DNA from: Escherichia coli
Lineage (GTDB): Bacteria > Pseudomonadota > Gammaproteobacteria > Enterobacterales > Enterobacteriaceae
DNA length: 46,125 nucleotides
Assembly (NCBI RefSeq): GCF_965641715.1
Contig: NZ_OZ282456.1
Reading direction: 5' to 3' (one strand)
The position numbers and the translations under genes are program-made. Positions 3,001-43,067 of the stretch are shown here, piece after piece. The notes below the pieces were generated by a model. The model was not told the DNA's origin, made no database searches, and saw only the letters and a list, made by a program, of their open reading frames with translations. Position 1 is the first letter of the stretch. The number at the start of each line of letters is the position of its first letter.

Positions 3001-3003
3001 TGC

Positions 3004-3113
3004 TTATATAATTATAGATTTATATAAAAAGTGCTTTACAGGTGGGAAAAAATTTCCTATGGTTATACCCGAAACCGAGCGATACCCGCCCTGGTTAAAC
3101 CGGAGATAACCCG
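3004..3113 (+). promoter_or_regulatory. Copy A of a triplicated ~110-bp promoter-leader element (AT-rich box, -35 TTTACA at 3035-3040, 17-bp spacer, -10 TATGGT at 3058-3063, leader with GGAG)
   Basis: Near-identical to 12067-12175 and 16786-16895; each copy ends at an ATG. Confidence 0.55.
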
Positions 3114-3494
3114 ATGAGCATGATTAAAATCCGCAAAAACGCTTTCCTTAAAATTCAAACTATCCTGGCTGGTTCTGTTGGCGTGATTTGCCGTTCTTCC
3201 TCAAGCCGCATCGATGACTGCTACGATGATGAGTATCGTGTGTCCTCATGCGATGAGGCTTTAACCTGGCTGAAGGAGAATCAGGAACGTGCCCAGGTAT
3301 ATCTGGAAACAGAGAACGGCAATCAGATGCTGCGTATTAGCGGTCGTTATGGATTTGAAACTACATTCATGGCCTATTTTAATCAGGCTTACTTTGACAA
3401 GGAGTTGGCCTGGTACACTGATCGCATGAGCAAAAGCGAGCCAGCCCCGATTACACCGCCGAACAATAAACCATTTTTATTCCTCGTTAAGTAA
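3114..3494 (+). CDS. Hypothetical protein (driven by promoter-leader copy A)
   Basis: 126-aa ORF directly after the conserved leader and Shine-Dalgarno. Confidence 0.45.
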   Translation: MSMIKIRKNAFLKIQTILAGSVGVICRSSSSRIDDCYDDEYRVSSCDEALTWLKENQERAQVYLETENGNQMLRISGRYGFETTFMAYFNQAYFDKELAWYTDRMSKSEPAPITPPNNKPFLFLVK

Positions 3495-3502
3495 ACACAA
3501 TG

Positions 3503-3529
3503 CGCAAAGTGTCATTTTGACACTTTGCG
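3503..3529. promoter_or_regulatory. 27-bp perfect palindrome CGCAAAGTGTCA-TTT-TGACACTTTGCG; candidate operator
   Basis: 12-bp perfect inverted arms around a 3-bp centre, 29 bp upstream of an HTH regulator ATG; half-site copy AAAGTGTCATTTTGA at 12006-12020. Confidence 0.45.
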
Positions 3530-3557
3530 AGTGTTAATATTGTGCGAGGAGGGTGCT

Positions 3558-3830
3558 ATGACGGGTTATGAATTGAAATTATGGCGTCGTGGGATGAACT
3601 GGACGCAGGAGCGAGCCGCCGAAGAATTTGGGATATCGTTGGCTACATATAAGCGATATGAGAAGGGGGAGCCGCCGAGGGTCATTGAGATGGCCATTCG
3701 CGTTCTGTCGTTTGACGATATGGTGAAGGATCTTTCACACCTTGATAAAGATGCGATTCTGTTAAGGCTGCAAACCCTTGTATGGGAAAAGGTTAAAGTG
3801 TCGGCAGAATTGGAACAAGGGATCAAATGA
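3558..3830 (+). CDS. HTH (XRE-like) transcriptional regulator
   Basis: ATG at 3558 with GAGGAGGG upstream; HTH segment WTQERAAEEFGISLATYKRYEKGE; the track TTG start at 3525 lies inside the palindrome. Confidence 0.5.
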   Translation: MTGYELKLWRRGMNWTQERAAEEFGISLATYKRYEKGEPPRVIEMAIRVLSFDDMVKDLSHLDKDAILLRLQTLVWEKVKVSAELEQGIK

Positions 3831-3882
3831 TCCTTTACGGATCGTTTTATGGTGGTGTAATGTAAGCGCCAGAAAGACAAAA

Positions 3883-3905
3883 ACCGCCTTGCCGGGCGGT
3901 TTTCA
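3883..3905 (+). terminator. Rho-independent terminator (possibly bidirectional)
   Basis: ACCGCC-TTGCCG-GGCGGT hairpin followed by TTTT, preceded by an A-run. Confidence 0.45.
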
Positions 3906-4600
3906 GTCTGAAATTTAAATCTTGCTTGGTAGGCTGGATTTAAAAAGACACCTCTTGATTGGGGCGGCTTTCTTGCGTCTAAAGATAATCAAATCTTTTT
4001 GCGCCTGCAACCCCTTTTTTACTGGTGCCCATTTCAGACTCACGCTCGCGTCGTTGTCTTTGCCACTTCGTTGGGTTCGGTGTTTTTGGGCGAAGTGGCG
4101 CGCGGGTATGCGTACAAGGGGAAAGTGTGCTGACGCAAGCCAGGAACAGCGATCTAAACTAAGTCGAGTCTGAGAAAGGCAGGAGTGCGACAACTCGCCT
4201 GTGCTCTATGAGCAGAAGAAGGTATATCAGACGACCAATGGCATGATTGTGGGCCACAGGGCGCACACGGCGGCGAAGCATTGGAAACGATGTGGAGCTA
4301 TCTGGTGGCATGAGTTCCGGTACTCTATCTCGAGCTTTTTTTGATGCTTTTGAGAAGGGGCCGGAACTCCGGTAAAGGGCACCCTGTATGGGGGGAGGGG
4401 GGGTTGTGTCTGAAGGGTGGTTATCGGTTATGGTGGAATTATGATGCGTAGAAAAGCGAGTTTGCTGCAAGCTATTGGGTCCATTATTTCTTTGTTTCCG
4501 GCAGTTGATCATTTTCGTCATATGGCGACACGTTCCAGTATGGGCTTGGCGCGTGACGCTGACGCTATTCGAAAGGATTTTCAGAAAGTCTCTGGTGTTG

Positions 4601-4635
4601 ATAAGAGAGAAAAGAGTAAGGGGCCGTAGCCCCTT
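4601..4635 (-). terminator. Rho-independent terminator of the antirepressor operon
   Basis: AAGGGGC-CGTA-GCCCCTT hairpin immediately after the antirepressor stop, followed on the minus strand by a T-rich run. Confidence 0.55.
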
Positions 4636-4639
4636 GTAG

Positions 4640-5782
4640 TTATGGTCTGCTTTTCTGTGCCAGCTTATCAGCACATGTTTTTATCAGATCCTGTAGTGTC
4701 CTGGCTGGCAGGTTTGCATCCAGTACGCTGAGTATGCTGTTGTGATCTGCTTGGTCTACTACTTTGCCTGTCGGTGGTAGTAGCTTGAGCTGAGGATTCA
4801 GGTTTTCGTCAAAGCTGATAAGTGCTCTGGCGTTTCTGAGCAGATCAAGAAGTAAGGCTGATATCACATTTTCCTGAGTCATTGCTGGCAGATTTAGCGC
4901 CGCTTTGGTTTTCCCTGTTGCCTTGTCAAACTCCTTGATTAGTTCCTTCCTATAGTTCGGTTCCGTTAATAGCCGATTATGCTCTGTTGCCGCGCGGATA
5001 ATCGTTTTTTCCTGGTACAGTCGTTTAGCCAGATCGCGCTCGTACTGTGTTTTTAACACGCTGCTGATAGCGTTAAAGGCTTCAATGTAGGCTAGCTTGA
5101 TATCCTTCACGCCTGGACCGTCGATACTTTCCATGAGCAAGGTAAATCCGTCTTTTGTCATGCGATAGATTGTTATTTCGCGGTCGCTTCCTTCCAACGG
5201 TCGTTGCTCTTTAAAGAAATGACGCGCCGCAGCTGTGCGAGGAATGCGTAACGCATCGATGGCCATAACGATGGAATTGTTTGTGGTGCTGAATGCCTGG
5301 GCTACATCGGCTGAGGTTGTGAGTGGCTCGTTGTTGCACACCTTAACGTAATACATTGGTTTGGCGTTGAGCGTATCGACAACCTCACGAGCATTGTTTG
5401 GCGAGACGGTAACGGTCGCGGCCGTTTGCGCGTTCTGGTTGAAATAGCAGTCTTCCAGTTTTTCGAACACATCCCAAGCCTGATCGGTTTCGAGCATTTT
5501 GGCGTGACGGGCTGCTCCGTGTTCGGTCCAGAGAATTAGGGAGCGGGCATTTTTACCAACTAACCCGATTGTTTCAGGTCTGTTCTTGAACTCGCGTAAT
5601 TCGTTTTTTTCAATTTTAAAGTAATGCTTTCCGGCTATGAATCGCGTCGTGTTGTTCAGAAAGTTATCAGAAATGTTTTTGATTTTTGTTCCGTATAACT
5701 GCGCCAGAAGTTCAGTTGTAATAACGGGGATCTGGTTATGCAAGATAGGCTGTAGGGTGTTAACGGTCGGAAGCGTTTTCAT
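4640..5782 (-). CDS. Phage antirepressor (Ant-like)
   Basis: 380-aa ORF; N-terminal region with ILWTEHGAARHAKMLETDQAWDVFEKLEDCYF resembles antirepressor N-terminal domains and the C-terminal part resembles KilA-C-type domains, by recall. Confidence 0.55.
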   Translation of the reverse strand: MKTLPTVNTLQPILHNQIPVITTELLAQLYGTKIKNISDNFLNNTTRFIAGKHYFKIEKNELREFKNRPETIGLVGKNARSLILWTEHGAARHAKMLETDQAWDVFEKLEDCYFNQNAQTAATVTVSPNNAREVVDTLNAKPMYYVKVCNNEPLTTSADVAQAFSTTNNSIVMAIDALRIPRTAAARHFFKEQRPLEGSDREITIYRMTKDGFTLLMESIDGPGVKDIKLAYIEAFNAISSVLKTQYERDLAKRLYQEKTIIRAATEHNRLLTEPNYRKELIKEFDKATGKTKAALNLPAMTQENVISALLLDLLRNARALISFDENLNPQLKLLPPTGKVVDQADHNSILSVLDANLPARTLQDLIKTCADKLAQKSRP

Positions 5783-5970
5783 TTTGCACCTCCCATAACT
5801 ACTTTGGTTACGAGGGAGATTTTTGCGTCAGAAACAGCGTTATCGTTGCTGGCGATGCGCATAGCTTCGCGCTCGATTATTTCAGCCAGGCGGAATTTAT
5901 CGGCGTATGAGGCTTTCTTGAGAAGGATCTTTACGAGGTTGACGTAATAGTCATGGGGTAAGTTTGTCAT
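5779..5970 (-). CDS. Small hypothetical protein co-transcribed with the antirepressor
   Basis: Internal ATG at 5970 has GGAG 8 nt upstream; stop overlaps the antirepressor start; the track start at 6006 has no SD. Confidence 0.4.
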   Translation of the reverse strand: MTNLPHDYYVNLVKILLKKASYADKFRLAEIIEREAMRIASNDNAVSDAKISLVTKVVMGGAK

Positions 5971-6130
5971 TGTGATATCTCCAATATATGGAACTATCAC
6001 CGCCATTCGAGGCTAATCAAATGGTGGTGAGCCGTACAGGGTTAGCCTTACCGGACACAATGACGAACCGGCGCGGATTTCTCCGCCCCTGTACGACCCA
6101 CCATAATTTGGGCGTAACAGTGCTCTACGC

Positions 6131-6157
6131 ATAAAAAAACCGCTAACGCGGTATGCG
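6131..6157 (-). terminator. Candidate intrinsic terminator (minus strand) in the antirepressor leader
   Basis: ACCGC-TAAC-GCGGT hairpin with a 7-A run on the plus strand (T7 on the minus strand). Confidence 0.35.
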
Positions 6158-6298
6158 CCATCGTGTTATTCAGGAGGCTAATCCCGACCGTAGATTTTGC
6201 TACGGCTCGGAAAGTGTCCACCAATGGCGCATTCATGTCAATACGGCGGGATTTTAACAGAGACAACCACATAGCGTGGGTTTATTGGTAGGCAGAAA

Positions 6299-6333
6299 CA
6301 AAAAAACCGCCCTATTGAGGACGGTTCTTTTGT
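6299..6333 (-). terminator. Intrinsic terminator (minus strand, possibly bidirectional) in the antirepressor leader
   Basis: 8-bp stem ACCGCCCT/AGGACGGT with one G-U pair, loop ATTG, flanked by an A-run on one side and TCTTTTGTG on the other. Confidence 0.5.
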
Positions 6334-6715
6334 GCTGATCGGATTCGCGGTCCTTTCAGCATAACGTCGTTGTGTAAACAACCACGCAAGCACAAGCGGC
6401 GTATCTATTCTTACTCAACTGAGGTGAATAGTCCACTATTCATATAAAGAAATTTAGTTCCTTAGTTCATGCAGAATGAAGTTTTTTAACTTCTTCGGAT
6501 GTAATTACATGTAATAAAAGCAATTGTTATTCCTTCATTATGAAGGCGAGGACGTGTAATATGGCTTGGGGCCTTTTCGCCGATTCGCACCCGGGCACCG
6601 ACTTTAAGGAAAGGATCATCCACTTGCCGTACACGCAAGCACAAGCGGAGTGCTTGCTCTCGCGTCATTTTCGTCGGTGGAGATGCCGTGAAACGGCCTG
6701 TAAGGGCCACACAAT

Positions 6716-6836
6716 GAAAAAATACTGTATGTGTATTTTTATCGTTGTTACTGGAGCTTTGTTTACGCCACATGGGGAGGGTTGGAAGATTACTGATAAC
6801 GCTCTGAATGTGACGATAAACATTAGCAGCAAGTAG
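6716..6836 (+). CDS. Candidate small hydrophobic peptide (40 aa)
   Basis: MKKYCMCIFIVVTGALFTPHGEGWKITDNALNVTINISSK; AAGGG upstream of the ATG; terminator immediately downstream. Confidence 0.2.
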
Positions 6837-6841
6837 CGATT

Positions 6842-6864
6842 AGGCCCCTTCGGGGGCCTTTTTT
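6842..6864 (+). terminator. Rho-independent terminator
   Basis: AGGCCCC-TTCG-GGGGCCT hairpin followed by TTTTTT. Confidence 0.55.
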
Positions 6865-6921
6865 ACTGCAACCTGCATTTGATAGCTGTTTACCATTGCA
6901 GTAGCTTATATACCGTAAGAG

Positions 6922-6934
6922 CCACAAGATGTGG
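6922..6934. promoter_or_regulatory. Operator-like inverted repeat CCAC-AAGAT-GTGG
   Basis: Same ACCAC-N5-GTGGT architecture as the three sites between the repressor and cro-like genes. Confidence 0.35.
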
Positions 6935-7012
6935 TTACGATTTCAATACGGGGTTGATATGAAAAAGCGGTATGACGAATTTGATGGTTTCTAAGAGACG
7001 TTGACCTCTAAT

Positions 7013-7037
7013 GAGGCGGGTTGGTTGCCCGCCTTTT
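7013..7037 (+). terminator. Rho-independent terminator
   Basis: GGCGGG-TTGGTTG-CCCGCC hairpin followed by TTTTTT. Confidence 0.5.
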
Positions 7038-7049
7038 TTATGGCTACAT

Positions 7050-7199
7050 TTAAACGCTGGAACGCATTAAACCTTTCAGAACTGCTTCACGTACCCATTC
7101 TGGCCTGGTTGATAGCAAGGCAAATAAACGCCCAGCTTTGAGTCGCTTGAGGTCTATTAGACGAGTTTTTAGTAACCGTGTATATTGTTGTTCGGACAT
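7050..7199 (-). CDS. Small hypothetical protein (49 aa) downstream of parG
   Basis: ATG at 7199 with GGGG 8-9 nt upstream; track frame 7050-7232. Confidence 0.25.
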   Translation of the reverse strand: MSEQQYTRLLKTRLIDLKRLKAGRLFALLSTRPEWVREAVLKGLMRSSV

Positions 7200-7261
7200 A
7201 ACAAATTCCCCTTGTTGTGTCGCGACGGCCAACAGTTGGCGCTGGAGGTCGTCACCTTCTC

Positions 7262-7510
7262 TTACTTCTGGTTGTATTGAGCCTTGAGTAACTCAAAAGA
7301 TTTTGTCAGCACTTCTTTCAATGACATATCCATTGAACTGGCGAACGTTTTGTACTCGCGTTTAAATTCAGGGTCGACGTTAAACGCCATTTGTGCCCCA
7401 CCTGATTTGGTTCTGGTTGGCGTTTCAGTCGGGTCGAAAACCTGCGGTTGTTCGATCGATGGCGGTACGCCTTTGCTGTTCTTCTTTGGTGGTTTTGATG
7501 GTGCGGCCAT
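7262..7510 (-). CDS. Partition protein, ParG-like ribbon-helix-helix centromere-binding protein
   Basis: 82 aa; disordered N-tail then FNVDPEFKREYKTFASSMDMSLKEVLTKSFELL, matching the RHH pattern of type Ib ParG; lies immediately downstream of parA. Confidence 0.5.
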   Translation of the reverse strand: MAAPSKPPKKNSKGVPPSIEQPQVFDPTETPTRTKSGGAQMAFNVDPEFKREYKTFASSMDMSLKEVLTKSFELLKAQYNQK

Positions 7511-7553
7511 GTGTATCCCCTCTTATATAAATCTATAAAACTATAATTATATA

Positions 7554-8207
7554 TTACGCGGCAGTAGTCAGAGCCTCAAGCTGGTTGATAATCCCCTGAA
7601 TAACGTCGTCTGCCTTTTTGCGTGGCGCAACGTATGAGCATTCAATGAGGCTTAAGCCCTTATCCTGAGCTTTGCTCAGAGCTGGCTTGTGGGGAATGTA
7701 CTTATCGACAACAAAGTATGGCGTATTAGCCAGGTACTCTTGGGCTTCAATATAGTCAGCTTCATTTTCAGCCGCGCCGGAAAACACCATGCAAATTTTC
7801 TTGATTGGCACACCCTTTTTAACGATGCCGTGAGCAGTGTTAACGGTGGTTTCCAGGTCATCGGTAGAGAATCGGGTTGGCAAAATAACCATATCCAGAA
7901 ATTCAGATAGCTTCGGTACTGATTCAGATGCGTAGGCACCGCCATCAACGATAACCAGGTCGTATACTTCTGATTCGATGATTTTCTGGACTTGTGATGG
8001 TGTGCCGCACGGCTGCGCCGCGATTGCTGGTTCGATATTGTTGGCCATTCTGCGTTGTACCCAACGCGTTACCGTTCCGTTAAGCACATCCATATCGATC
8101 AGGCATACATTCCAGCCAGCCTTTGCATAAGCAACTGCTAAAGCACGGGCAATTGTTGATTTGGTTACGCCGCCTTTTCCGTTGAAAATACCTACAGAGA
8201 TAGTCAT
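7554..8207 (-). CDS. parA: Partition ATPase ParA/ParF (Walker-type)
   Basis: Deviant Walker A GKGGVTKST near the N-terminus; ATG at 8207 has GGAG 9 nt upstream (track start 8222 lacks SD). Confidence 0.8.
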   Translation of the reverse strand: MTISVGIFNGKGGVTKSTIARALAVAYAKAGWNVCLIDMDVLNGTVTRWVQRRMANNIEPAIAAQPCGTPSQVQKIIESEVYDLVIVDGGAYASESVPKLSEFLDMVILPTRFSTDDLETTVNTAHGIVKKGVPIKKICMVFSGAAENEADYIEAQEYLANTPYFVVDKYIPHKPALSKAQDKGLSLIECSYVAPRKKADDVIQGIINQLEALTTAA

Positions 8208-8222
8208 TTGTCGAGACTCCAT

Positions 8223-8345
8223 GTGTTTGGTTATATAATTCTATAAATCTATATTTATAGAACGAGGTAAGCATAACCAACTTTTTGGCGGATGGAAAGC
8301 GTTTTATATAATTATATAAATCTATAATCATATAAGCGGGCGTTA
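8223..8345. repeat. AT-rich repeat array upstream of parA; candidate partition site/operator
   Basis: Two copies of TTATATAATT(C/A)TATAAATCTATA at 8231-8260 and 8304-8335. Confidence 0.4.
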
Positions 8346-8357
8346 GCCCGCTTGCAG

Positions 8358-8732
8358 TCAGAGGTCAGCTATCGTTGATATCAGTTGATTTGCTAGCTGT
8401 CGCTGTTTACGTGAGAGGGTTAGAGCAGCTTCTGAGCGGTCGCTAAGAGGAGTGTTTTCATCAAGAATCATGAGGCATACAGAAATAATAGCCCTGTTAT
8501 ATGCCATCAATGGCTGGCACAGCTTCGATACCGCTGGCACATCGTATTGCAAGGCCGTTTTGAGGCAGACTTTTTGTTCTGATGCCAGATGAAGGATAGA
8601 TTCTATCCAGTCGATATCTTTCTCATTATCAATGATTTGGCATAACATACACTCAATCGCTATGTTCAACGCTTGGATTTCGATTCCAGCAGTGATCAGA
8701 GTTTCGTTTTTATTGGCTGTATGTAATTCCAT
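8358..8732 (-). CDS. Hypothetical protein downstream of the repressor
   Basis: 124-aa ORF; no recognisable family. Confidence 0.4.
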   Translation of the reverse strand: MELHTANKNETLITAGIEIQALNIAIECMLCQIIDNEKDIDWIESILHLASEQKVCLKTALQYDVPAVSKLCQPLMAYNRAIISVCLMILDENTPLSDRSEAALTLSRKQRQLANQLISTIADL

Positions 8733-8764
8733 GCGTAGCCTCTTTTATACTTTCACATGTTGTC

Positions 8765-8785
8765 AAAACCACAAATCGTGGTTTT
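8765..8785. promoter_or_regulatory. Operator-like palindrome AAAACCAC-AAATC-GTGGTTTT
   Basis: ACCAC-N5-GTGGT site in the intergenic gap downstream of the repressor gene. Confidence 0.4.
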
Positions 8786-8824
8786 TTTGAGCGTAGAAAT
8801 GCACGGCTTTCGCCGTGCTGTGTA

Positions 8825-9481
8825 TCATAACCAGTTGACAACACTAACTACGCGGCCCAGAACTTTATAACGCTTAAATTCCTCGTTATTCAGATGCTTA
8901 GTGTTCATTTCAGCATCCCTTTCGGTTGACAGCATAACAGCATTGTCACCCGGTATGACTCTACAGTGCCTCAAAACAACCAGGCCATTTCTGTCTTCAA
9001 GGGCATAGATCCCCTCATGAATCTCTGTATCGTCTGTATTAATCAGGACTTGGGAGCCAGGGGATATTGTTGGTGACATTAACTCATCGTTGCTCTGGAG
9101 AACTGACAGAGACGATGGGTTGATGTTCTTGCTTCGTAGAATCTCCTGTTCTATCGCCAGCACTGGCTTTTCTCCGGCGTGCGATGCTATGTCATTTTTT
9201 ATAGCTACAAGCCCAGGAATAACAGGAGCGTTAGTATTCTGGGGTGGGAACGGGTTATCTGTTAAGCACGCGATATAAGGCGCTGATGCTTTCAGGGCGT
9301 GCGCGATTTTCTTGATGGCAGGTATCGATGGTTGTCTTAATCCGGCCTCATAGTTCTGCAAGGTGCTTAAGCCTATTCCAGTGACTTGCTGGAGATCTCC
9401 GGCAGTCATGCCGGATTGTTTCCGTAGAGTCTGAATGCGCAGACCTATTTCTTTCTTGATGTTCTCGTCGTTGCTTTTCAT
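8825..9481 (-). CDS. CI-like prophage repressor (HTH XRE domain plus S24 LexA-like peptidase domain)
   Basis: N-terminal HTH (LRKQSGMTAGDLQQVTGIGLSTLQNYEAG); C-terminal domain with the layout of self-cleaving CI/LexA repressors. Confidence 0.8.
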   Translation of the reverse strand: MKSNDENIKKEIGLRIQTLRKQSGMTAGDLQQVTGIGLSTLQNYEAGLRQPSIPAIKKIAHALKASAPYIACLTDNPFPPQNTNAPVIPGLVAIKNDIASHAGEKPVLAIEQEILRSKNINPSSLSVLQSNDELMSPTISPGSQVLINTDDTEIHEGIYALEDRNGLVVLRHCRVIPGDNAVMLSTERDAEMNTKHLNNEEFKRYKVLGRVVSVVNWL

Positions 9482-9518
9482 GTCTCATCAATCGTGAATG
9501 GTGGGTTATTTATACATT

Positions 9519-9636: not shown

Positions 9637-9655
9637 TTTAACTGGAGTTCGTTAA

Positions 9656-10892: not shown

Positions 10893-11296
10893 TGAACGGA
10901 CGTACACCAACGAAGAAAGAGAAACTTTATATACAAGCGGTGCTCACTCACGTGGGTTGCATAGCTTGCATTATTGATGGCCGTGAAATTGAGAATCCAG
11001 AGCTGTGGACGGAGCTACATCACGATCCTGATTACGGCAGCGTTGATGAGAATTGCCACTTTCATAGCTTTGGATTGTGCGCACCACATCATCGCGGTGT
11101 TGTGCCTGGTGGTGGGCGCGTGCCTCCGCATATCGCCGTTCGTCACCCTCCCCTGAGTAATTGTGCTCGCTTTGTTGAGCGTTATGGCACCGATGAATTT
11201 TTGTGTGCGCAGACGTGGGAGCTGTTGCCGCAGTCAGTTAAAGACGAAATTGGGTTTGATCTTAGTCTTGGTGAAGTACCAGGGGATACCAAATGA
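10892..11296 (+). CDS. Cys/His-rich protein, possible HNH/Ref-like nuclease
   Basis: Motifs CIACI...HHD...CHFH...CAPHHRG suggest a metal-binding nuclease fold; family uncertain. Confidence 0.3.
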   Translation: MNGRTPTKKEKLYIQAVLTHVGCIACIIDGREIENPELWTELHHDPDYGSVDENCHFHSFGLCAPHHRGVVPGGGRVPPHIAVRHPPLSNCARFVERYGTDEFLCAQTWELLPQSVKDEIGFDLSLGEVPGDTK

Positions 11297-11625
11297 GATA
11301 TACCGGCTTTCGCAAACCAGCGACCAGGAAAAGCAAATACGGCAATAAAAAAACGGTTGTCGATGATATCGCTTTTGATAGCAAAAAAGAGGCTGATTAC
11401 TACTGCGAACTGAAGTTACTGAGAAAAGCTGGCCGCGTTGTGACGTTTCTTATGCAGGTGCCTTTTCATCTGCCTGGTGGTGTCGTTTATAAACTTGATT
11501 TCATGGTGTTTTATGACGATGGGACGATTGATTGTGTCGACACTAAAGGTGTGCGAACAGACGTCTACATCATGAAGAAAAAGCAGGTAGAGGCGCTTTA
11601 TCCCGTCACGATACGGGAGATCTGA
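11293..11625 (+). CDS. DUF1064-family phage protein
   Basis: KYGNKKTVVDDIAFDSKKEADYYCELKLL matches the DUF1064 N-terminal signature as recalled. Confidence 0.5.
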   Translation: MRYTGFRKPATRKSKYGNKKTVVDDIAFDSKKEADYYCELKLLRKAGRVVTFLMQVPFHLPGGVVYKLDFMVFYDDGTIDCVDTKGVRTDVYIMKKKQVEALYPVTIREI

Positions 11626-11628
11626 ACA

Positions 11629-12006
11629 GTGAGACGCGATCTGGATAGCTTGTTTGAGCTATGGGCGCTGTGGGTGCGCAATGGCTGCAACGCCCGTAGC
11701 GGTTTCGCGTCGATGTTAGAAATGATGATGGTTACGCGTTGCCAGTTTACCGGAGGGGGCGGCGCACCAAATGACTCACTGGAAACCAGTATCGAGGGAG
11801 CTGTGACGGCCCTCACGGTAGTTGATGAGACTGCGGCGCTGGTTGTCCGAATTGAATACGGGGCGTGGGAGATTCGGGGCCTCGACATAAATGCACCGCA
11901 TATTGATAAAGCCCACGCCCTTTCTCTTAGTCTCAGACAGTATCGCCGGAAGCTGGCAAAAGCCAGGGCGTATGTTGTCGACTATTTGAAAAAGCGAAGA
12001 GAGTGA
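11629..12006 (+). CDS. Putative antitermination protein Q-like
   Basis: 125 aa; N-terminal L.ELWALW pattern and size resemble small Q antiterminators; position just upstream of a promoter-leader copy and the late genes. Confidence 0.4.
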   Translation: MRRDLDSLFELWALWVRNGCNARSGFASMLEMMMVTRCQFTGGGGAPNDSLETSIEGAVTALTVVDETAALVVRIEYGAWEIRGLDINAPHIDKAHALSLSLRQYRRKLAKARAYVVDYLKKRRE

Positions 12007-12066
12007 AAGTGTCATTTTGAGCTGTTTTGATGGTGTGTAGACATCGGGAACATCGAAAATCTATAA

Positions 12067-12175
12067 ATATATAATTATAGATTTATATAAAAAGTGCTTT
12101 ACAGGTGGGAAAAAATTTCCTAAGGTTATACCCGAAACCGAGCGATACCCGCCCTGGTTAAACCGGAGAAATCTG
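12067..12175 (+). promoter_or_regulatory. Copy B of the triplicated promoter-leader element
   Basis: About 97 percent identical to 3004-3113 and 16786-16895 over about 100 bp; one base shorter before the ATG. Confidence 0.55.
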
Positions 12176-13243
12176 ATGAATAAACAAGTAATTATTTCTG
12201 ACTGGATCAACAACCCTAACAGCCTGTTAAGCACTGATACTGGCTACCTATTACGCCATGTTAATGGTCGTATGGTCAAAAGCGATGAGCACGAAACCTT
12301 TTTCTTTGTTGAAGACGATGGGCGTATCTATGAGGATGGTTACTCTTATGAAGCCCAAACTGGTTGTATCCCTGCGGAGCTGGTGGACGTAACAGAAGAT
12401 CTGCGCAAAGCATGGCTTGAACAGCAGCAGCGCGGAGATGATTACGTAAACACCTATCAGGAACGCCAGAACGCGCGTCTTGCCCGATATATTGCTCGTG
12501 CAGAAAAAGCCAGAAAAGAAGGTGCGGTAGCGCATAAGCGAGCGCATGACCTGTTGGATGTGATCCCGTTAGGCCAGCCGATTTTAGTTGACCATTATAG
12601 CGCGAAAGGCCATCGCCGCCGTTTGTCTAAAGCTGATGCGTTATTCAGAAAAGCGTTTGTTGAATGCGAAAGTAAAGCATCACACTACGAGAGCAAAGCC
12701 GCAGGTGTTGGTCGTAATGGAATTTCGTCTGATGATCCTGATGCGCTATTTAAGTTGCTTCGTAAGCTGCAAGGCTGCATGAAGTCACACGTCAAAATGA
12801 AGGCCGCAAATAAGGCCATTCGCAAATACAAAAAAGACCAATTACAGCAGCTTTCTGCATTAATCGATCTCAGGTTTACAGAAAGCGAAGCCAAAGAGTT
12901 ACTGGCCGGAGATTTCTGTGGGCACATCGGATTCCCTTCATACGCACTGAGCAACAATAAGGCCGAAATCAAACGACTACAGAGCCGTATTAAGGAGCTT
13001 GAATCGGTCAAGTCTGTAACAGGAGCACAGCGCGAAGAATACGACGGCTTTTCTATGGAGATAGATCCAGAGGATAACCGCATCCTGTTTTATTTCCCTG
13101 GCAAACCAGAGGCAAACATTCGTTCGCTGCTTAAATCACGCGCCTTTAAGTGGAGTCCAACCCGTAATGCATGGGTTCGCAAGATTACTCCAAACGCCCT
13201 GGCTGATGCCCGATATCTGAAAGAATCGCTATTGAAAGCCTGA
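12176..13243 (+). CDS. DUF3560-family protein
   Basis: Segments GQPILVDHYSAKGHRRRLSKADA, ISSDDPDALFKL and MKAANKAIRKYKK match DUF3560 as recalled. Confidence 0.5.
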   Translation: MNKQVIISDWINNPNSLLSTDTGYLLRHVNGRMVKSDEHETFFFVEDDGRIYEDGYSYEAQTGCIPAELVDVTEDLRKAWLEQQQRGDDYVNTYQERQNARLARYIARAEKARKEGAVAHKRAHDLLDVIPLGQPILVDHYSAKGHRRRLSKADALFRKAFVECESKASHYESKAAGVGRNGISSDDPDALFKLLRKLQGCMKSHVKMKAANKAIRKYKKDQLQQLSALIDLRFTESEAKELLAGDFCGHIGFPSYALSNNKAEIKRLQSRIKELESVKSVTGAQREEYDGFSMEIDPEDNRILFYFPGKPEANIRSLLKSRAFKWSPTRNAWVRKITPNALADARYLKESLLKA

Positions 13244-13320
13244 CAGTAAGCCTACGGCGGGATATCTCCCGCCGTATATAGAATTATATATTTATATAAA
13301 TGTATAAGGACGCCTCGACA

Positions 13321-13602
13321 ATGAAACGCAAAATTATTAACCCCCAAGATGTGATTAATTTCCTGACCGATCACCCATGTTCAAAAGTGGACGTAATCGC
13401 GGAGCACATTGGTGTGTCGCAGAACTCTATGCGTTGCAGACTGAGAAGCATGGTTGCCGAAGGACAGATAACAACCAGGAAAATAAATGGTTGCCTGTAC
13501 TACTCCGCTAAACCGGAATTGCCATTTGGCATGAATCCTAACTCCATGTTGTTTAACACCTTATTAGCCAAAGTTAAGCCGTTGAGAGGGGCTGTGGCAT
13601 GA
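13321..13602 (+). CDS. Hypothetical protein (possible winged-helix DNA-binding)
   Basis: Track frame 13300-13602; the 13300 start lies inside an AT-rich motif, ATG at 13321 preferred. Confidence 0.35.
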   Translation: MKRKIINPQDVINFLTDHPCSKVDVIAEHIGVSQNSMRCRLRSMVAEGQITTRKINGCLYYSAKPELPFGMNPNSMLFNTLLAKVKPLRGAVA

Positions 13603-13992
13603 GCATCAAAACCCATACCGGAATAATCATTACCAATGATGGTGAGAAAAGAGTGAAGTTGCGCGAAACGCCGACAACCTGGTGTGTTGGTCCGAAAGAA
13701 ACATAATGAAGCACATACAACCGAAAACATGGCAGAAACTGGACTCTATGGGCGTTAAGTTGGAGAAGATTACTCAACTTAAGCAGTGGCATATCGGCGA
13801 ATATTATGGAAGTCCTGGTCGGGATGTTCGGTTGGTCAAAAGTTAAGTATTGTTTTTTTATTGATCGATTAACCACAATATGAAGGTTTTTTTATGGGAA
13901 AACCTTGTTTTAGGTGGTAACTGGGTGTAGTGTTTCATTTAACGTAGTAAAACTGCGTTAAGCGATTACCGCGTAATTTGTTGCTTTATGAA

Positions 13993-14023
13993 GCCCTGCC
14001 TTTTCGGCGGGGCTTTTTTTTTT
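13993..14023 (+). terminator. Strong Rho-independent terminator immediately upstream of the lysis cassette
   Basis: 8-bp stem GCCCTGCC/GGCGGGGC (one G-U), loop TTTTC, followed by a 10-T run; holin ATG 14 bp downstream. Confidence 0.65.
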
Positions 14024-14036
14024 AACGAGGATTTCA

Positions 14037-14432
14037 ATGTCAGCAGAACCAATTTCCGGTACGGCCGTTGCTGCTGGTGGCCTGATGGGTGCCAGCGTTT
14101 TTGGTATTGCAACTGGTATTGATTACGGCGTTGTATTCGGGGCATTTGCTGGCGCTGTTTTCTATGTTGCTACAGCGGTGAATATTAGCCGTCTCAAGCT
14201 GATTGGCTATTTCTTTACATCGTTCATTGTTGGAGTGATTGGAGCGCCGTTAGTTGGCTCATTTCTTGCCAAATGGACCAGCTACAACGATCGTCCTCTG
14301 GATGCGCTTGGTGCGGTTATTGTGGCTGCATTGACCATTAAAATCCTCACGTTCGTAAACAGCCAGGATCTCGGTAGCATCTTTGGAATGCTTTCCCGCT
14401 TACGTGGAGGGGGTTCAAATGGTAAGCAGTGA
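14037..14432 (+). CDS. Holin-like membrane protein
   Basis: 131 aa with several hydrophobic segments; first gene of the lysis cassette. Confidence 0.45.
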   Translation: MSAEPISGTAVAAGGLMGASVFGIATGIDYGVVFGAFAGAVFYVATAVNISRLKLIGYFFTSFIVGVIGAPLVGSFLAKWTSYNDRPLDALGAVIVAALTIKILTFVNSQDLGSIFGMLSRLRGGGSNGKQ

Positions 14433-14715
14433 CCCGTCAGCACTGATTAATGCGGTGCTTTGCACAGTAATAGTAATGGCGCTGATGCTTTATCGACGGA
14501 AAGACTCCAGGCATCGTCCATTTGTTTCCTTTCTGGCTTATATCTACGTCATTGTATACGCCAATGTTCCCTTCCGTTATGTGTTCGGTCTTTATCAAGA
14601 ATCCCACTGGCTGGTGGTTATTGGAAATCTGATTATCTGCATCGTTGTTCTGTATTTCAGGGGCAATCTGGCGCGGATAGTTGACGCATTAGGGTTTAAT
14701 CATGACCAAAGATGA
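14419..14715 (+). CDS. Second membrane protein of the lysis cassette (holin/antiholin-like)
   Basis: ATG at 14419 with GGAGG 8 nt upstream; about three predicted transmembrane segments; track frame 14383-14715. Confidence 0.4.
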   Translation: MVSSDPSALINAVLCTVIVMALMLYRRKDSRHRPFVSFLAYIYVIVYANVPFRYVFGLYQESHWLVVIGNLIICIVVLYFRGNLARIVDALGFNHDQR

Positions 14716-15244
14716 GATTTTTAACAGTGTTCTTGGAAAAGAGGGCGGCTATGTGGATCACCCTGACGACAAGGGAGGCCCAACAAAGTGGGGCATTACT
14801 CAGAACACTGCCCGTGCTCATGGATACCGTGGCGATATGCGCGATTTAACTCGCGAACAGGCTCTGGAAATCCTTGAGGCTGATTACTGGTACGGCCCAC
14901 GTTTTGACCAGATAGCAACTCTGTCGCCGGATATTGCCGCAGAACTGTGCGACACGGGCGTCAACATGGGGCCAACAGTGGCGTCAAAAATGCTTCAACG
15001 CTGGCTGAATGTGTTCAACCTGCGTGGGAAGCTGTATCCCGATTTGGATGCAGACGGACGAATCGGTCCACGTACCATTAATGCGCTGCGTGCTTATCTT
15101 GGGAATCGGGGAAAAGACGGCGAACGGGTGATGCTGACGTCGCTGAACTGTACGCAGGGCGAACGCTATCTGGAGTTGGCGGAGAAGCGCGAGGCTAATG
15201 AGTCGTTTGTCTACGGCTGGATGAAAGAGCGAGTGGTGGTATGA
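14702..15244 (+). CDS. Endolysin (GH108-type N-terminal domain with peptidoglycan-binding C-terminal domain)
   Basis: N-terminal signature GKEGGYVDHPDDKGGPTKWGIT typical of GH108 lysozymes. Confidence 0.75.
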   Translation: MTKDEIFNSVLGKEGGYVDHPDDKGGPTKWGITQNTARAHGYRGDMRDLTREQALEILEADYWYGPRFDQIATLSPDIAAELCDTGVNMGPTVASKMLQRWLNVFNLRGKLYPDLDADGRIGPRTINALRAYLGNRGKDGERVMLTSLNCTQGERYLELAEKREANESFVYGWMKERVVV

Positions 15245-15519
15245 CTGGTTTGAAGGCCGTTTTGTCATTTATTGGCACAATTATATTGGTTGCATTTGGC
15301 GCGTTTGGTTTTGGTCGTATGAAGGGGCGAGAAAAGGCCGAAGATGAAGCTGAAAAGCAGCGCATTAATGAGAATGCAGCCGCCGTAAAAGCCACTGCGG
15401 AGCGGCGTATAGAAGTGACAAAAGAGGTGGGGAATGTACAGCAGAGTGTTAACCATATGGCTGATGACGATGTTGATCGCGAGCTGCGGGAGTCGTGGAA
15501 GCGTCCCGGTGGTGGTTGA
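15241..15519 (+). CDS. i-spanin (Rz-like)
   Basis: N-terminal transmembrane helix then charged coiled-coil region; follows the endolysin with overlapping start. Confidence 0.5.
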   Translation: MTGLKAVLSFIGTIILVAFGAFGFGRMKGREKAEDEAEKQRINENAAAVKATAERRIEVTKEVGNVQQSVNHMADDDVDRELRESWKRPGGG

Positions 15520-15643
15520 TACCGCCTGTGATTGGGTAAAGCCCATCTACCTGACTGATCACGACATCGATGTTATGGACCGACAGACAAAGAAAGATAT
15601 TCTGGCTCATAACAGGGCATGGGAAATCAACTGTCCAAAGTAA
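15434..15643 (+). CDS. o-spanin (Rz1-like lipoprotein) overlapping the i-spanin in another frame
   Basis: Lipobox-like LIASC within the signal sequence; overlapped Rz/Rz1-type arrangement. Confidence 0.5.
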   Translation: MYSRVLTIWLMTMLIASCGSRGSVPVVVDTACDWVKPIYLTDHDIDVMDRQTKKDILAHNRAWEINCPK

Positions 15644-15720
15644 TATATATTTCTATAATTATATAAATATATAGTTACAACATTCTATGCGCTTTTCTCA
15701 TGGGCGCACGCATCAACCAT

Positions 15721-15803
15721 GTTTGTCTGATATGCCGCCGCGCCCAAAAATCCTGAATTTATTGGCTGGGATTTTCGTGCGCGGCGCCACACCAGACAAA
15801 CAA
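15721..15803. other. Long multi-tier inverted repeat upstream of the tRNA
   Basis: Outer arms GTTTGTCTG/CAGACAAAC, middle arms GCCGCGC/GCGCGGC, inner arms AAAATCC/GGATTTT. Confidence 0.35.
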
Positions 15804-15812
15804 ATCAAATAT

Positions 15813-15888
15813 GGCCCCTTAGCTCAGTGGTTAGAGCAGGCGACTCATAATCGCACGGTCATCGGTTCAAATCCGGTAGGGGCCACCA
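15813..15888 (+). tRNA. tRNA with CAT anticodon (Met by anticodon; sequence resembles the lysidine-type tRNA-Ile2)
   Basis: Manual cloverleaf: 7-bp acceptor stem GGCCCCT/AGGGGCC, D-arm GCTC-AGTGGTTA-GAGC, anticodon loop CTCATAA, T-loop GGTTCAAATCC, 3' CCA encoded. Confidence 0.8.
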
Positions 15889-16195
15889 ATTCACTCTCAC
15901 ACATAAAGATAAGCGCGGTGGAGTTACTTCTTCGTGCTCATCTTTATGCGTGCCTGGTGCGCATTTCGGGCGAACGTGGGGCTAAGTTACAGGCAGGGCC
16001 TGTTATCCGCAAAGGGGTAAAAGCTGGAGCGGCACGGAACTGTAGCCGTGTTACCAAAACAGCGTTGTCGGGCGATATCCGGCACACAACAGGCAAGGGC
16101 ATTAATCAGTCTGGTTAGTGCCCTTTTCGTTGTGTTTGCTGTAGAGCTGGCCAGCGTTATGACTGCCGGAGATAAGCGCCGGAGGCACAATTAAC

Positions 16196-16783
16196 ATGGA
16201 GGCAATTGCATTGTTTAATCTGATTTATGCAGATCCCCCCTGGGAATACAAAGACAAGTGTAAGGATGGGAATCGTGGAGCTGGTTTTAAGTATCCAACG
16301 ATGAAAGCTGAGGAGATTGCTCGTATTCCTGTCTGGCAGCTTGCTAATCCTGAATCGTGTTTGTTGGCCATGTGGTGGGTTCCGACTCAGCCAGAAGAAG
16401 CGTTGCTGGTGGTTAAAGCATGGGGATTCAGGCTGATGACCATGAAGGGCTTCACATGGAACAAATGTGGTAGCCGACAACCAGATAAGCTGGTGATGGG
16501 GATGGGGCATATGACTCGTGCAAACAGTGAAGATTGCTTGTTTGCGGTAAAAGGCAAACTGCCGACCCGTCTTGATGCGGGGATCATTCAGTCGTTTACA
16601 TCGCCTCGTCTGGAGCATTCTCGGAAGCCTGATGTGGTCCGTGACAAGCTGGTAAAGCTGTTAGGTGATGTTCCTCGTATTGAGCTGTTTGCTCGCGGTG
16701 ATTTACCTGATGGCTGGCATGGCTGGGGCAACCAGTGCAATGGAGGTATCCAGTTGCATGATGCTCTCTGGCAAGTGGCATAG
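16196..16783 (+). CDS. MT-A70-family DNA N6-adenine methyltransferase
   Basis: Catalytic DPPW motif near the N-terminus (IYADPPWEY), size about 195 aa. Confidence 0.75.
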   Translation: MEAIALFNLIYADPPWEYKDKCKDGNRGAGFKYPTMKAEEIARIPVWQLANPESCLLAMWWVPTQPEEALLVVKAWGFRLMTMKGFTWNKCGSRQPDKLVMGMGHMTRANSEDCLFAVKGKLPTRLDAGIIQSFTSPRLEHSRKPDVVRDKLVKLLGDVPRIELFARGDLPDGWHGWGNQCNGGIQLHDALWQVA

Positions 16784-16785
16784 AA

Positions 16786-16895
16786 TTATATAATTATAGA
16801 TTTATATAAAAAGTGCTTTACAGGTGGGAAAAAATTTCCTAAGGTTATACCCGAAACCGAGCGATACCCGCCCTGGTTAAACCGGAGATAACCCG
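16786..16895 (+). promoter_or_regulatory. Copy C of the triplicated promoter-leader element
   Basis: Near-identical to copies A and B; ends at the ATG of 16896. Confidence 0.55.
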
Positions 16896-43065: not shown

Positions 43066-43067
43066 TT

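Follow-up and report, generated by a model that had tools for sequence, protein, structure and literature searches.

Why does a phage-plasmid keep the same noncoding block of about 110 bp in three places? The window, that is, the whole stretch of Escherichia coli DNA that was analysed (46,125 nucleotides), is an entire phage-plasmid (CP055628.1). An earlier note, made from the sequence alone, had described near-identical copies at 3004–3113 (A), 12067–12175 (B) and 16786–16895 (C), and direct reading and pairwise alignment confirm them. Copy A differs from copy C by a single base, the third of the -10 hexamer (TATGGT versus TAAGGT); copy B is identical to C through GGAGA and then shows one deletion and two substitutions within the 8 bases that precede the ATG. 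The identity of about 97% estimated by eye becomes 99% and 91%, ungapped over 114 nt, in a repeat search, and the block shared by B and C starts an 8-bp unit earlier, at 12059 and 16778. The described features are present: an AT-rich box, TTTACA, a 17-bp spacer, TA(T/A)GGT and a GGAG 8 nt before the ATG. The genes behind the copies (126 aa; 355 aa, DUF3560; 89 aa) are indeed mutually unrelated. A search of related phage-plasmids, as the note had proposed, finds the same three copies in other records. The same trio turns up in 65 plasmid records and in three Yersinia phage genomes, and the cassette is present in 71 of 5426 complete E. coli genomes, at a median of 3 places per genome; given this recurrence, the repeat is not due to chance.

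The answer that we favour, with moderate confidence, is that two repressors encoded by the plasmid control a strong promoter in each copy, an arrangement comparable to that of the omega regulon of plasmid pSM19035. The cassette probably places the three genes under the plasmid's own partition and maintenance regulators. It consists of four modules: an array of 8-bp units, a sigma-70 promoter, a 17-bp palindrome in the promoter spacer, and a leader with a hairpin and a GGAG ribosome site.

2973–2995: terminator insulating cassette A
2996–3113, plus strand: cassette A, with array units at 3004–3027, hairpin at 3073–3096, GGAG at 3102–3105 and ATG at 3114; the first unit position (2996–3003) is occupied by the tail of the upstream terminator
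3035–3040 (-35 TTTACA), 3043–3059 (palindrome TGGGAAAAAATTTCCTA) and 3058–3063 (-10 TATGGT), plus strand: promoter of cassette A
3114–3830, plus strand: unit behind cassette A, encoding a 126-aa protein of unknown function (3114–3494) and a 90-aa XRE-type HTH protein (3558–3830)
12059–12175, plus strand: cassette B, with a four-unit array at 12059–12090, hairpin at 12136–12159, GGAG at 12165–12168 and ATG at 12176
12098–12103 (-35), 12106–12122 (palindrome) and 12121–12126 (-10 TAAGGT), plus strand: promoter of cassette B
12176–13243, plus strand: gene behind cassette B, encoding the 355-aa DUF3560 protein
13990–14016: terminator
16778–16895, plus strand: cassette C, with a four-unit array at 16778–16809, hairpin at 16855–16878, GGAG at 16884–16887 and ATG at 16896; the first array unit overlaps the stop codon of an MT-A70 methylase gene
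16817–16822 (-35), 16825–16841 (palindrome) and 16840–16845 (-10 TAAGGT), plus strand: promoter of cassette C
16896–17362, plus strand: unit behind cassette C, encoding two proteins of unknown function (89 aa and 65 aa); a terminator follows at 17384–17407

Reading the block as a promoter plus leader is supported by relatives in which the sigma-70 hexamers are kept 17 bp apart in an otherwise changed sequence. In L061, L062, L064, L065 and L066, a diverged -35 (TTGCGG, TTGCAA, TTGACA and similar) lies 17 bp from TAATAT, TATTAT or TATTCT. All copies in the window have the sigma-70 promoter TTTACA-17-TA[T/A]GGT, with A at position 2 and T at position 6 of the -10; copy A passes a consensus scan (9/12), and copies B and C reach 8/12 by eye. 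The spacer is filled by the 17-bp palindrome, TAGGAnn-N3-nnTCCTA, which also overlaps the first two bases of the -10 and whose outer TAGGA half-sites are invariant. The palindrome recurs at a fourth promoter, which has neither the array nor the shared leader and precedes the gene of a 95-aa protein.

1438–1466, plus strand: fourth palindrome promoter, with TTGCAA at 1438–1443, TAGGAAAAGATTTCCTA at 1446–1462 and TACCAT at 1461–1466
1493–1780, plus strand: gene of a 95-aa HTH-like protein beside repA, a proposed palindrome-binding autorepressor

This arrangement, with the palindrome at the three cassettes and at the promoter of the 95-aa gene, is found in six loci of two array-unit groups, and in L062 the homologue of the 95-aa gene sits inside a cassette operon. 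The HTH assignment is based on sequence reading and one weak PHROG match (E=3e-4). Counting against the pairing of this protein with the palindrome, L067 has a homologue of the gene and lacks the TAGGA palindrome.

What the earlier note called an AT-rich box belongs to a set of eight phased 8-bp arrays; the note overlooked this, as well as the conserved palindrome in the promoter spacer and the covarying hairpin in the leader. In the cassettes, three or four units of TTATA[T/G]A[A/T], 8 bp long, stand in tandem, and the array ends 7 bp upstream of the -35. Five further arrays lie outside the cassettes, two of them bracketing the promoter of the partition gene parA.

8304–8335, minus strand: parA array 1, four 8-bp units immediately preceding the parA promoter
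8298–8293 (-35 TTTCCA) and 8275–8270 (-10 TATGCT), 17-bp spacer, minus strand: parA promoter
8231–8262, minus strand: parA array 2, four units in the interval from the parA promoter to the parA ribosome site
7554–8207, minus strand: ParA, small Walker-type, 217 aa, without an N-terminal HTH
7523–7554, minus strand: four-unit array after the parA stop codon and before the 82-aa gene's ribosome site
7262–7510, minus strand: gene of an 82-aa protein after parA, with a basic disordered tail and then a strand-helix-helix pattern; proposed ParG/omega-like array binder
13276–13307, plus strand: four-unit array abutting the ribosome site of a 93-aa MarR-like gene (13321–13602)
15643–15674, plus strand: four-unit array, some 140 bp ahead of a tRNA gene (15813–15885)

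A matrix scan finds exactly eight four-unit phased sites, scoring 26–43 bits with a matrix built from those same eight sites, and 100 shuffles reach at most 11.4 bits. All eight arrays share one orientation relative to the downstream gene, and their positions are conserved in Salmonella plasmids and a Yersinia phage. In relatives with 35–55% ParA identity, two arrays again bracket the parA promoter, a layout seen in L061, L062 and L063, and the unit sequence differs. It is TTATATAA in the window, ATTTAAAT in L061, L064 and L065, AGATATA in L062 and L066, and ACGAATTA in L063 and L067. The 8-bp period is less clear in the ATTTAAAT lineages, which counts against the proposed operator.

The only domain matches of ParA are CbiA, ParA and MipZ, and the pair formed by a small-ParA gene and a small-protein gene recurs in seven distant loci. 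Profile comparisons and structural models suggest that the 82-aa protein resembles, weakly but repeatedly, ribbon-helix-helix (RHH) proteins. Each single test lies below significance: hhalign aligns the protein to the RHH region of ParG (P=0.0012, probability 19%); a PDB search up to E=10 gives '56B' (2KEL, E=0.12) as the sole match, over the proposed strand-helix-helix stretch; and sub-threshold matches link members of the family to Pfam RHH_10 (12/40, at E<=0.1), Antitox_RHH (6/40) and 56B_RHH (5/40). The last of these Pfam families is named after the protein '56B'. Pfam ParG does not match the 82-aa protein, and one of its relatives carries the UniRef name ParG. The AlphaFold2 monomer consists of a disordered tail and two helices; a fused-dimer model failed (pLDDT 46), which counts against the assignment.

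Loci with a common array unit also have a common predicted beta-strand in the small protein, so that four unit types pair with four beta-strand types, each in two or three loci. The protein of about 125 aa that neighbours the small protein is 22% identical between L063 and L067 despite their common unit; in the sequences compared, it does not track the array unit. On the same comparisons, the arrays track the par locus, the unit changing along with the small protein, a co-variation that is confounded by shared descent, since all parts of the locus diverge in parallel; the ~125-aa protein, by its contrasting behaviour, is the sole and partial control for this.

The leader carries a 7-bp hairpin and the GGAG ribosome site. 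RNAalifold predicts the hairpin independently. In the alignment, 97.4% of cells are paired, compared with 12–42% in shifted-partner controls, and four pairs change on both sides, which is equalled in 1 of 500 shuffles. By our own structural parse, all seven pairs are kept in 18 distinct variants, with the loop free to vary. The hairpin is followed by AAACCGGAG, not by a T-run. AACCGGAGATAA is kept in the window and in four distant loci (L061, L064, L065 and L067), and L062 and L066 have CA(C/T)NTGA(A/G)GAGATA in its place.

Between E. coli and Salmonella plasmids, the cassette is 88–91% identical, the driven genes 52–68% and other intergenic regions 72–73%; to judge from these identities, the cassette is under constraint. 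Relatives whose ParA is 35–55% identical have the same architecture, usually in three copies, before other gene families, and among distant relatives this cassette type precedes at least eight unrelated gene families. The tight co-regulation of the three genes that the earlier note proposed is very likely; its portable cassette holds on the evolutionary scale only, as positions are fixed within the close family. Paralogous copies within a plasmid match at 101–104 of 104 positions in two of three genomes and at 95–100 in S. salamae, and copies compared between E. coli and Salmonella plasmids match at 89–94 of 104. Which of the positions A, B and C carries the -10 variant or a given pre-ATG spacer variant changes from plasmid to plasmid. 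Such patterns indicate that the copies evolve together; their likeness would be maintained by strong selection and sequence exchange among them.

Each copy would act as a composite cassette for the host RNA polymerase, in which a sigma-70 promoter is joined to a short, structured 5' leader and to a strong ribosome site, with two different operator types flanking and overlapping the promoter. The first operator would be the 8-bp array, the same element as around the parA promoter, bound cooperatively by dimers of the 82-aa protein, a candidate centromere-binding protein of the ParG/omega RHH type. The second would be the spacer palindrome, bound by the 95-aa HTH-like protein encoded beside repA; the promoter of the 95-aa gene has the same palindrome in the same place. 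The hairpin would start 2–3 nt from the predicted RNA 5' end and most likely shields the mRNA from decay. In a new cell that has no regulators yet, the promoters would fire strongly and would then be turned down as both plasmid proteins accumulate. In this way, three accessory operons would be coupled to the circuit for partition and maintenance. The position of the array upstream of the -35 counts against this scheme: a protein bound there could activate rather than repress.

Strong leader conservation and a covarying hairpin could also mean that the leader is the main control point, its hairpin or ribosome-site region being targeted by an antisense RNA or an RNA-binding translational repressor. 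The plasmid does have c4- and isrK-like RNAs (homologues at 6020–6206), but their complementarity to the leader is at most 6 nt, and plasmid-wide the longest complementary match is 11 nt, with five 10-mers where 3.9 are expected, which is chance level. The comparison with RNA family models suggested earlier gives no Rfam 15 match at E<=1 in 2990–3140, and a gathering scan of the window finds only c4, isrK, ryfA and a tRNA, all outside the leader. Loop sequences differ even among copies of one genome, which argues against loop-specific recognition; a protein may recognise the shape of the stem. Taken together, leader control is quite unlikely to be the main mechanism. The suggestion in the earlier note that the leader holds a Q-type antitermination or regulator-loading site for the gene upstream of copy B is highly improbable. 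Copy B does come after the last gene of an early rightward operon (11629–12006), and TATACC just past the -10 loosely resembles a -10-like pause element. However, comparison of this supposedly Q-like gene with Pfam, NCBIfam and PHROGs brings up no family of Q proteins or antiterminators; its 125-aa product matches only an unannotated PHROG and, below threshold, the PA0613 family. Copies A and C lie far from it, A behind its insulating terminator, and the cassette is kept in distant lineages with different initial transcribed sequences. A search for a terminator-like site between the -10 and the ATG finds none, which leaves nothing for antitermination to act on.

An explanation that dispenses with a dedicated regulator is that these are 'moron' promoters, strong and constitutive, with the AT-rich tract as UP element, triplicated and homogenised by gene conversion. 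Their canonical hexamers at 17 bp, the A-tract just upstream of the -35 and the evident exchange between copies would fit, as would an unrelated low-GC phage whose own multi-copy promoter cassette contains the identical 18-mer TATAAAAAGTGCTTTACA, suggesting convergence on a strong UP/-35 arrangement. A generic AT-rich tract, however, needs no phased 8-bp units, and the units are common to the parA operator and to sites lying right at a ribosome site, where no promoter follows. Their sequence switches by lineage together with the par locus, and the palindrome is conserved as a palindrome in several lineages besides recurring at the fourth promoter. We consider unregulated promoters unlikely for these reasons. 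The arrays might also be bound by a host protein such as H-NS, IHF or Fis, or by another plasmid protein, the association with par being incidental; they are extremely AT-rich, like H-NS targets, and the RHH assignment of the 82-aa protein is weak. Yet host nucleoid proteins are nearly identical in these enterobacterial hosts, and the array unit is sharply lineage-specific. The ~125-aa neighbour fails to follow the unit, and the arrays surround the parA promoter in every lineage, which is the normal operator/centromere position of small-ParA systems (PMC3130281). A different binder therefore seems improbable.

Phage-plasmids occur frequently in clinical isolates of E. coli, Salmonella and their relatives. 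The present family, of which the plasmid in the quality-control strain ATCC 25922 is a member, appears from its sequences to run a compact two-operator circuit in which partition-protein arrays are reused at several promoters and are combined with a promoter and an RNA leader in a single repeated block. If the reading with two plasmid-encoded repressors is true, it would account for a noncoding block being better conserved than any other DNA of the early region, and the genes behind the cassette would form a co-regulated set, for example of establishment or anti-defence candidates. The cassette could become a compact, repressible expression part for engineering. A wider version can be offered tentatively: the eight arrays would be both centromeres and operators, and the partition protein would regulate transcription globally, as an enterobacterial, phage-borne equivalent of omega; the cassette would work as a 'plug' that can be transferred to any newly acquired accessory gene, giving a burst on entry and then a copy-number-linked shut-down by the two repressors; the hairpin would set mRNA lifetime, and the driven genes, whose functions are uncharacterised and which differ from lineage to lineage, would serve establishment or anti-defence. 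The two-operator circuit, if confirmed, would be, to our knowledge, the first omega-like global partition regulon in a Gram-negative phage-plasmid.

Several known systems share parts of this design. In the IncP plasmid RK2, the two plasmid-encoded repressors KorA and KorB, one of which is the partition protein, jointly control many promoters, producing an expression burst on entry into a new host and then shut-down. The proteins and operators are unrelated to those considered here, and the operators of RK2 are not packaged with a shared promoter and leader. In the linear phage-plasmid N15, work by Grigoriev and Lobocka in 2001 reportedly placed the IR sites near phage control regions. N15 has four natural SopB sites, IR1–IR4 (PMC7205306). 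It resembles the present element as a phage-plasmid with partition-protein sites (here candidate sites) spread over the genome rather than gathered in one centromere, but it has a large HTH-type ParB (SopB), single inverted repeats and no repeated promoter-leader cassette.

ParG of TP228, with its parH/OF sites, occupies boxes that recur every 8 bp ahead of the par operon, with one dimer on each; the boxes act as operator and centromere (PMC3130281). The gene order is alike, a small Walker ParA gene followed by that of a protein of about 76–82 aa whose N-terminal tail is basic and flexible and whose C-terminal part is a strand-helix-helix. The similarity to ParG falls short of significance (P=0.0012), the boxes have another sequence, and ParG sites occur only around the par promoter, in contrast to the dispersed arrays of the phage-plasmid. 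Closest is omega, the RHH ParB of the Firmicute plasmid pSM19035, a small partition protein acting through short tandem repeats, direct or inverted, at several promoters; its 7-bp repeats overlap three promoters, serve also as centromeres, and must number at least four in a row (PMC9499535). Like pSM19035, the phage-plasmid has several arrays, each of four units, both at the parA promoter and beside further transcription units, where binding and a centromere role are putative. Unlike the 7-bp WATCACW of omega, its units are 8 bp long and AT-only, it is an enterobacterial phage-plasmid, and there are eight sites, three of which are embedded in a larger repeated cassette with a second operator and a conserved RNA leader.

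The three near-identical copies of the promoter-leader cassette described in the earlier note (copy A, 3004-3113; copy B, 12067-12175; copy C, 16786-16895) were confirmed by reading and by alignment. Copies A and C differ by a single base, which lies inside the -10 hexamer, and the differences of copy B are confined to the eight bases that separate GGAG from the ATG. The genes behind the copies encode a 126-aa protein, a 355-aa DUF3560 protein and an 89-aa protein and are indeed mutually unrelated. The view of the cassette as portable does not apply to close relatives, in which the three positions are fixed, but it holds on an evolutionary scale. Distant loci carry two or three cassettes each (some loci are incomplete), ahead of other small genes. 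These fall into at least eight unrelated families, all without known function, which makes the cassette a reusable unit of expression and regulation on this scale. PADLOC gave no defence match for the cassette-driven proteins of the window or for the distant-locus families, and PHROGs and NCBIfam matched such proteins only to families of "unknown function".

These distant relatives could be reached only via homologues of ParA, not via cassette DNA patterns. ParA homologues at 35-55% identity led to seven loci (L061-L067). A leader 19-mer found only close relatives among viral contigs, and its three matches in species-representative genomes were due to chance. A promoter 18-mer returned mostly unrelated phages, and all loci retrieved with the DUF3560 protein showed at least 95% identity. 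An unrelated low-GC phage (L043-L045, L049 and L054; IMG/VR contigs 3300028797_000212, 3300028914_000103 and 3300031993_000745) has its own multi-copy promoter-leader cassette, with TTTACA-17-TATAAT, a leader hairpin, AAGGAG and different genes behind it. The exact 18-mer TATAAAAAGTGCTTTACA common to its cassette and that of the window is apparently the result of convergence.

Identity of the cassette between the E. coli plasmid and plasmid L003 of Salmonella Weltevreden is 88-91%, compared with 52-68% for the cassette-driven genes, 64-82% for other genes and 72-73% for other regulatory intergenic regions. Paralogous copies within a plasmid are alike at 101-104 of 104 positions in two of three genomes and at 95-100 in S. 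salamae, whereas orthologous copies are alike at only 89-94. About ten lineage-specific changes are common to all three paralogs, and the T/A variant of the -10, like two forms of the spacer that leads up to the ATG, is found at A, B or C depending on the plasmid. Paralogs that are more alike than orthologs, with variants shuffled among the three places, show sequence exchange between the copies (gene conversion or recombination) on top of strong selection.

The A-tract AAAAAGTGC lies ahead of the cassette promoter, TTTACA-17-TA(T/A)GGT, where a proximal UP subsite would be. The hexamers of the distant loci have diverged (TTGCGG, TTGCAA or TTGACA; TAATAT, TATTAT or TATTCT), yet their spacing is still exactly 17 bp and their place in the cassette is unchanged, which is good comparative support for a genuine sigma-70 promoter. 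A palindrome occupies the whole spacer and extends over the first two -10 bases. It reads TGGGAAA-AAA-TTTCCTA in the window, TAGGAAA-ATA-TTTCCTA, a perfect palindrome, in Salmonella, and TAGGACT-AAA-AGTCCTA in L062.

A fourth copy of the palindrome (1446-1462) has the same spacer position in a promoter, TTGCAA-17-TACCAT, that lacks both the array and the shared leader and lies upstream of a gene for a 95-aa protein adjoining repA. The pairing of the palindrome with a 95-aa homologue recurs in L003, L004, L061, L064 and L065. In L062 the homologue comes second in a cassette operon, and it is present in L067, where the TAGGA palindrome is absent. The 95-aa protein contains a helix-turn-helix-like stretch, SGSQLAKKLGLKDSRNVRNW, and weakly matches a PHROG of transcriptional repressors. 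With the palindrome in its own promoter, the gene looks autoregulated, which makes its product the best candidate for the palindrome binder, a tentative assignment with slightly less than an even chance of being right. The 90-aa XRE-type helix-turn-helix protein encoded with the 126-aa protein behind cassette A was rejected as a general palindrome binder, because L062, L064 and L065 lack it yet keep the palindrome.

The "AT-rich box" noted upstream of the -35 is present but is actually a phased array of tandem 8-bp units, TTATA[T/G]A[A/T], and the unit TTATATAA is itself palindromic. The plasmid contains exactly eight arrays of about four units, all inside 2996-16809 and all in one orientation relative to the downstream gene. 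With a matrix built from these same sites, their scores are 26-43 bits, and 100 shuffles reach at most 11.4. Two Salmonella plasmids and one Yersinia phage have arrays at the same eight positions.

Placement of the eight arrays.
Four arrays directly ahead of a -35: parA array 1, with TTTCCA-17-TATGCT behind it, and those of the three cassettes.
Three arrays abutting a ribosome site, which leaves no space for a promoter: parA array 2 and those of the genes for an 82-aa protein and a MarR-like 93-aa protein.
One array ahead of a tRNA gene.

The tRNA gene (15813-15885, plus strand) lies inside a mechanical 143-aa ORF and is missing from the gene table of the plasmid record; it is tRNA-Met in the record of a related Yersinia phage. 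The array lies about 140 bp upstream, and the stretch between them has no obvious sigma-70 promoter. A GC-rich hairpin, ACGGCGGGATATCTCCCGCCGT (13255-13274), separates the stop codon of the DUF3560 gene from the array that comes next, and a similar one, AAGCGGGCTAACGCCCGCTT (8336-8355, minus strand), lies ahead of parA array 1; a transcription barrier may often stand ahead of arrays.

Around parA, L061-L067 have the gene order of the window (cI-like gene, ~125-aa gene, parA, ~80-aa gene), with an IncFII-type repA in the same stretch in five of the seven. Two arrays bracket the parA promoter in every distant locus inspected, and the unit sequence differs.

Array units and the corresponding strand segment of the ~80-aa protein.
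Window and Salmonella plasmids: unit TTATATAA, segment AQMAFNV.
L061, L064 and L065: unit ATTTAAAT, segment K(S/P)M(N/Y)FN(V/M).
L062 and L066: unit AGATATA, segment KQLLLRL.
L063 and L067: unit ACGAATTA, segment VPMNFKV.

The same unit goes with the same segment of the ~80-aa protein, the would-be DNA-reading strand. The ~125-aa neighbour does not track the unit, being only 22% identical between L063 and L067 despite their common unit. These comparisons with distant loci tie the arrays to the partition system.

The ~80-aa protein, represented in the window by the 82-aa protein encoded after parA (7262-7510, minus strand), has a conserved basic, proline-rich tail followed by a strand-helix-helix pattern. 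It looks like a ribbon-helix-helix (RHH) protein, each similarity being weak but recurrent. hhalign against ParG gave P=0.0012 across the RHH region; the sole PDB match up to E=10 was "56B" (2KEL; E=0.12), over the proposed strand-helix-helix stretch. Many family members have sub-threshold Pfam matches to RHH_10, Antitox_RHH and 56B_RHH, the last named for the 2KEL protein, and UniRef names one relative ParG. For the 82-aa protein, PDB searches with a narrow profile or the C-terminal domain alone gave nothing useful, Foldseek with the monomer model gave no meaningful match, and a linker-fused dimer model had low confidence. ParG boxes repeat every 8 bp and take one dimer each (PMC3130281), and omega binds 7-bp repeats that overlap three promoters and double as centromeres, requiring at least four contiguous repeats (PMC9499535). 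As such repeats are bound by ParG and omega, the RHH-like similarity makes the 82-aa protein the best candidate for the array binder, with about an even chance of being correct.

The cI-like repressor (8825-9481, minus strand) was rejected for this role: CCACnnTATGTGG palindromes elsewhere are its likely operators, which leaves the arrays to a different regulator. The palindromes lie at 6267-6279, 8769-8781, 9520-9532, 9602-9614 and 9623-9635, and also at 6922 and 45942, and the window has eight matches of this form against 0.45 expected. They are concentrated in the gap that separates the cI-like gene from the early operon, ahead of the isrK/c4 region and ahead of a 124-aa gene. If they are operators of the cI-like repressor, as is probable, its regulon is separate from the arrays.

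The leader hairpin (3073-3096) consists of 4 + 3 base pairs, starts 10 nt past the -10, 2-3 nt from the expected RNA 5' end, and ends 5 nt ahead of AAACCGGAGATAA, which is followed by the ATG. This ribosome-site motif is nearly unchanged in L061, L064, L065 and L067, and L062 and L066 have the variant CAYNTGARGAGATA. All distant loci keep the hairpin with a changed sequence: AACC/GGTT becomes GGCC/GGCC or GGTC/GACC, GCG/CGC becomes GGC/GCC, GAC/GTC or GGT/GCC, and the loop varies freely, even inside one genome. RNAalifold independently predicted the same seven pairs. Pairing holds in 97.4% of cells, against 12-42% in shifted-partner controls. Four pairs are changed on both sides, a result matched in 1 of 500 shuffles; the independent double-change events number about four, because several fall on one branch.

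Because no T-run comes after it, the hairpin is not a terminator. A Q-type antitermination site in the leader, as once suggested, is not supported: there is neither a Q-like family match nor a terminator to read through, and the candidate gene at 11629-12006 matches no Q or antiterminator family. The leader matches no Rfam family, an RNAduplex scan for an antisense partner found only the cassettes' own antisense strands, and exact complements within the plasmid are at chance level, with no antisense partner. Stem-loops at the 5' end, such as that of ompA, protect mRNA from 5'-end-dependent decay. By analogy, such protection is most likely the role of this hairpin, because it sits at the RNA 5' end.

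The 46,125 bp of the window are the whole of the circular plasmid CP055628.1 (pRHB38-C13_5 of E. coli), in rotated and reverse-complemented form. It is a phage-plasmid: besides a full myovirus structural module, which includes an invertible tail-fibre segment, it has an IncFII-type RepA, HigBA, a small ParA, a lysis cassette, a cI-like repressor and c4/isrK-like RNAs. One region on its minus strand (4640-6206) has a layout like the immI region of P1:

6133-6206, minus strand: isrK-like RNA.
6020-6108, minus strand: c4 antisense RNA.
5779-5970, minus strand: small ORF.
4640-5782, minus strand: ORF6N/Rha-domain protein, which could be an antirepressor.

The chromosomal E. coli sRNA family ryfA has a full-length match (135 bits) on this phage-plasmid, at 6567-6864 (plus strand). 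At 43064-44161 and 45256-45810, inverted repeats of 361 bp flank alternative tail-fibre and assembly genes beside a Hin-type invertase and mark an invertible host-range segment. Three diverged 93-nt direct repeats (41322-41714) in the tail-fibre gene and three 42-nt repeats spaced by 120 nt (35683-35964) in the tape-measure gene are ordinary internal protein repeats.

Close relatives comprise 65 plasmid records and three Yersinia phages (vB_YpM_39/41/44). Among complete E. coli genomes, 71 of 5426 are carriers, with a median of three cassette places. They include the quality-control strain ATCC 25922, in which a 48,488-bp family member (NZ_CP009073.1 and other records) has three copies at 95% identity; another record of this strain, NZ_CP032086.1 (94,204 bp, 6 cassette places), looks like a dimer or a misassembly. 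L064 (Serratia CP074139.1) and L065 combine the module shared with the window (cI, parA, the small protein, cassettes and IncFII-type repA) with a lambda-like siphovirus tail of GpJ type, whereas the tail in the window is that of a myovirus. This maintenance and regulatory module moves between phage-plasmids of different morphotypes.

On balance, the cassette is probably a promoter and leader unit turned down by two plasmid proteins. Host RNA polymerase would initiate at a good promoter, and the leader would yield a stable, well-translated mRNA. We infer that control is negative: the partition protein, bound to the array ahead of the -35, and the 95-aa protein, bound to the spacer palindrome, would each turn the promoter down, so that expression would be high just after the plasmid enters a new cell and low after it has become established. 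The sequences themselves show the architecture and its conservation, the co-variation and the pairing in the leader RNA; the identity of the two binders, the direction of control, the transcription start and the function of the hairpin are proposals drawn from them.

The searchable literature yielded no description of this cassette, of regulation in this plasmid family or of the TTATATAA motif. In function, the closest systems are the pSM19035 omega regulon and the TP228 ParG operator, although this one is not assignable to the ParG or omega family, because the RHH fold of the 82-aa protein is putative. The dispersed arrays can be likened to the dispersal of partition sites in the phage-plasmid N15, and the proposed control by two repressors to the dual global repression exerted by KorA and KorB of RK2.
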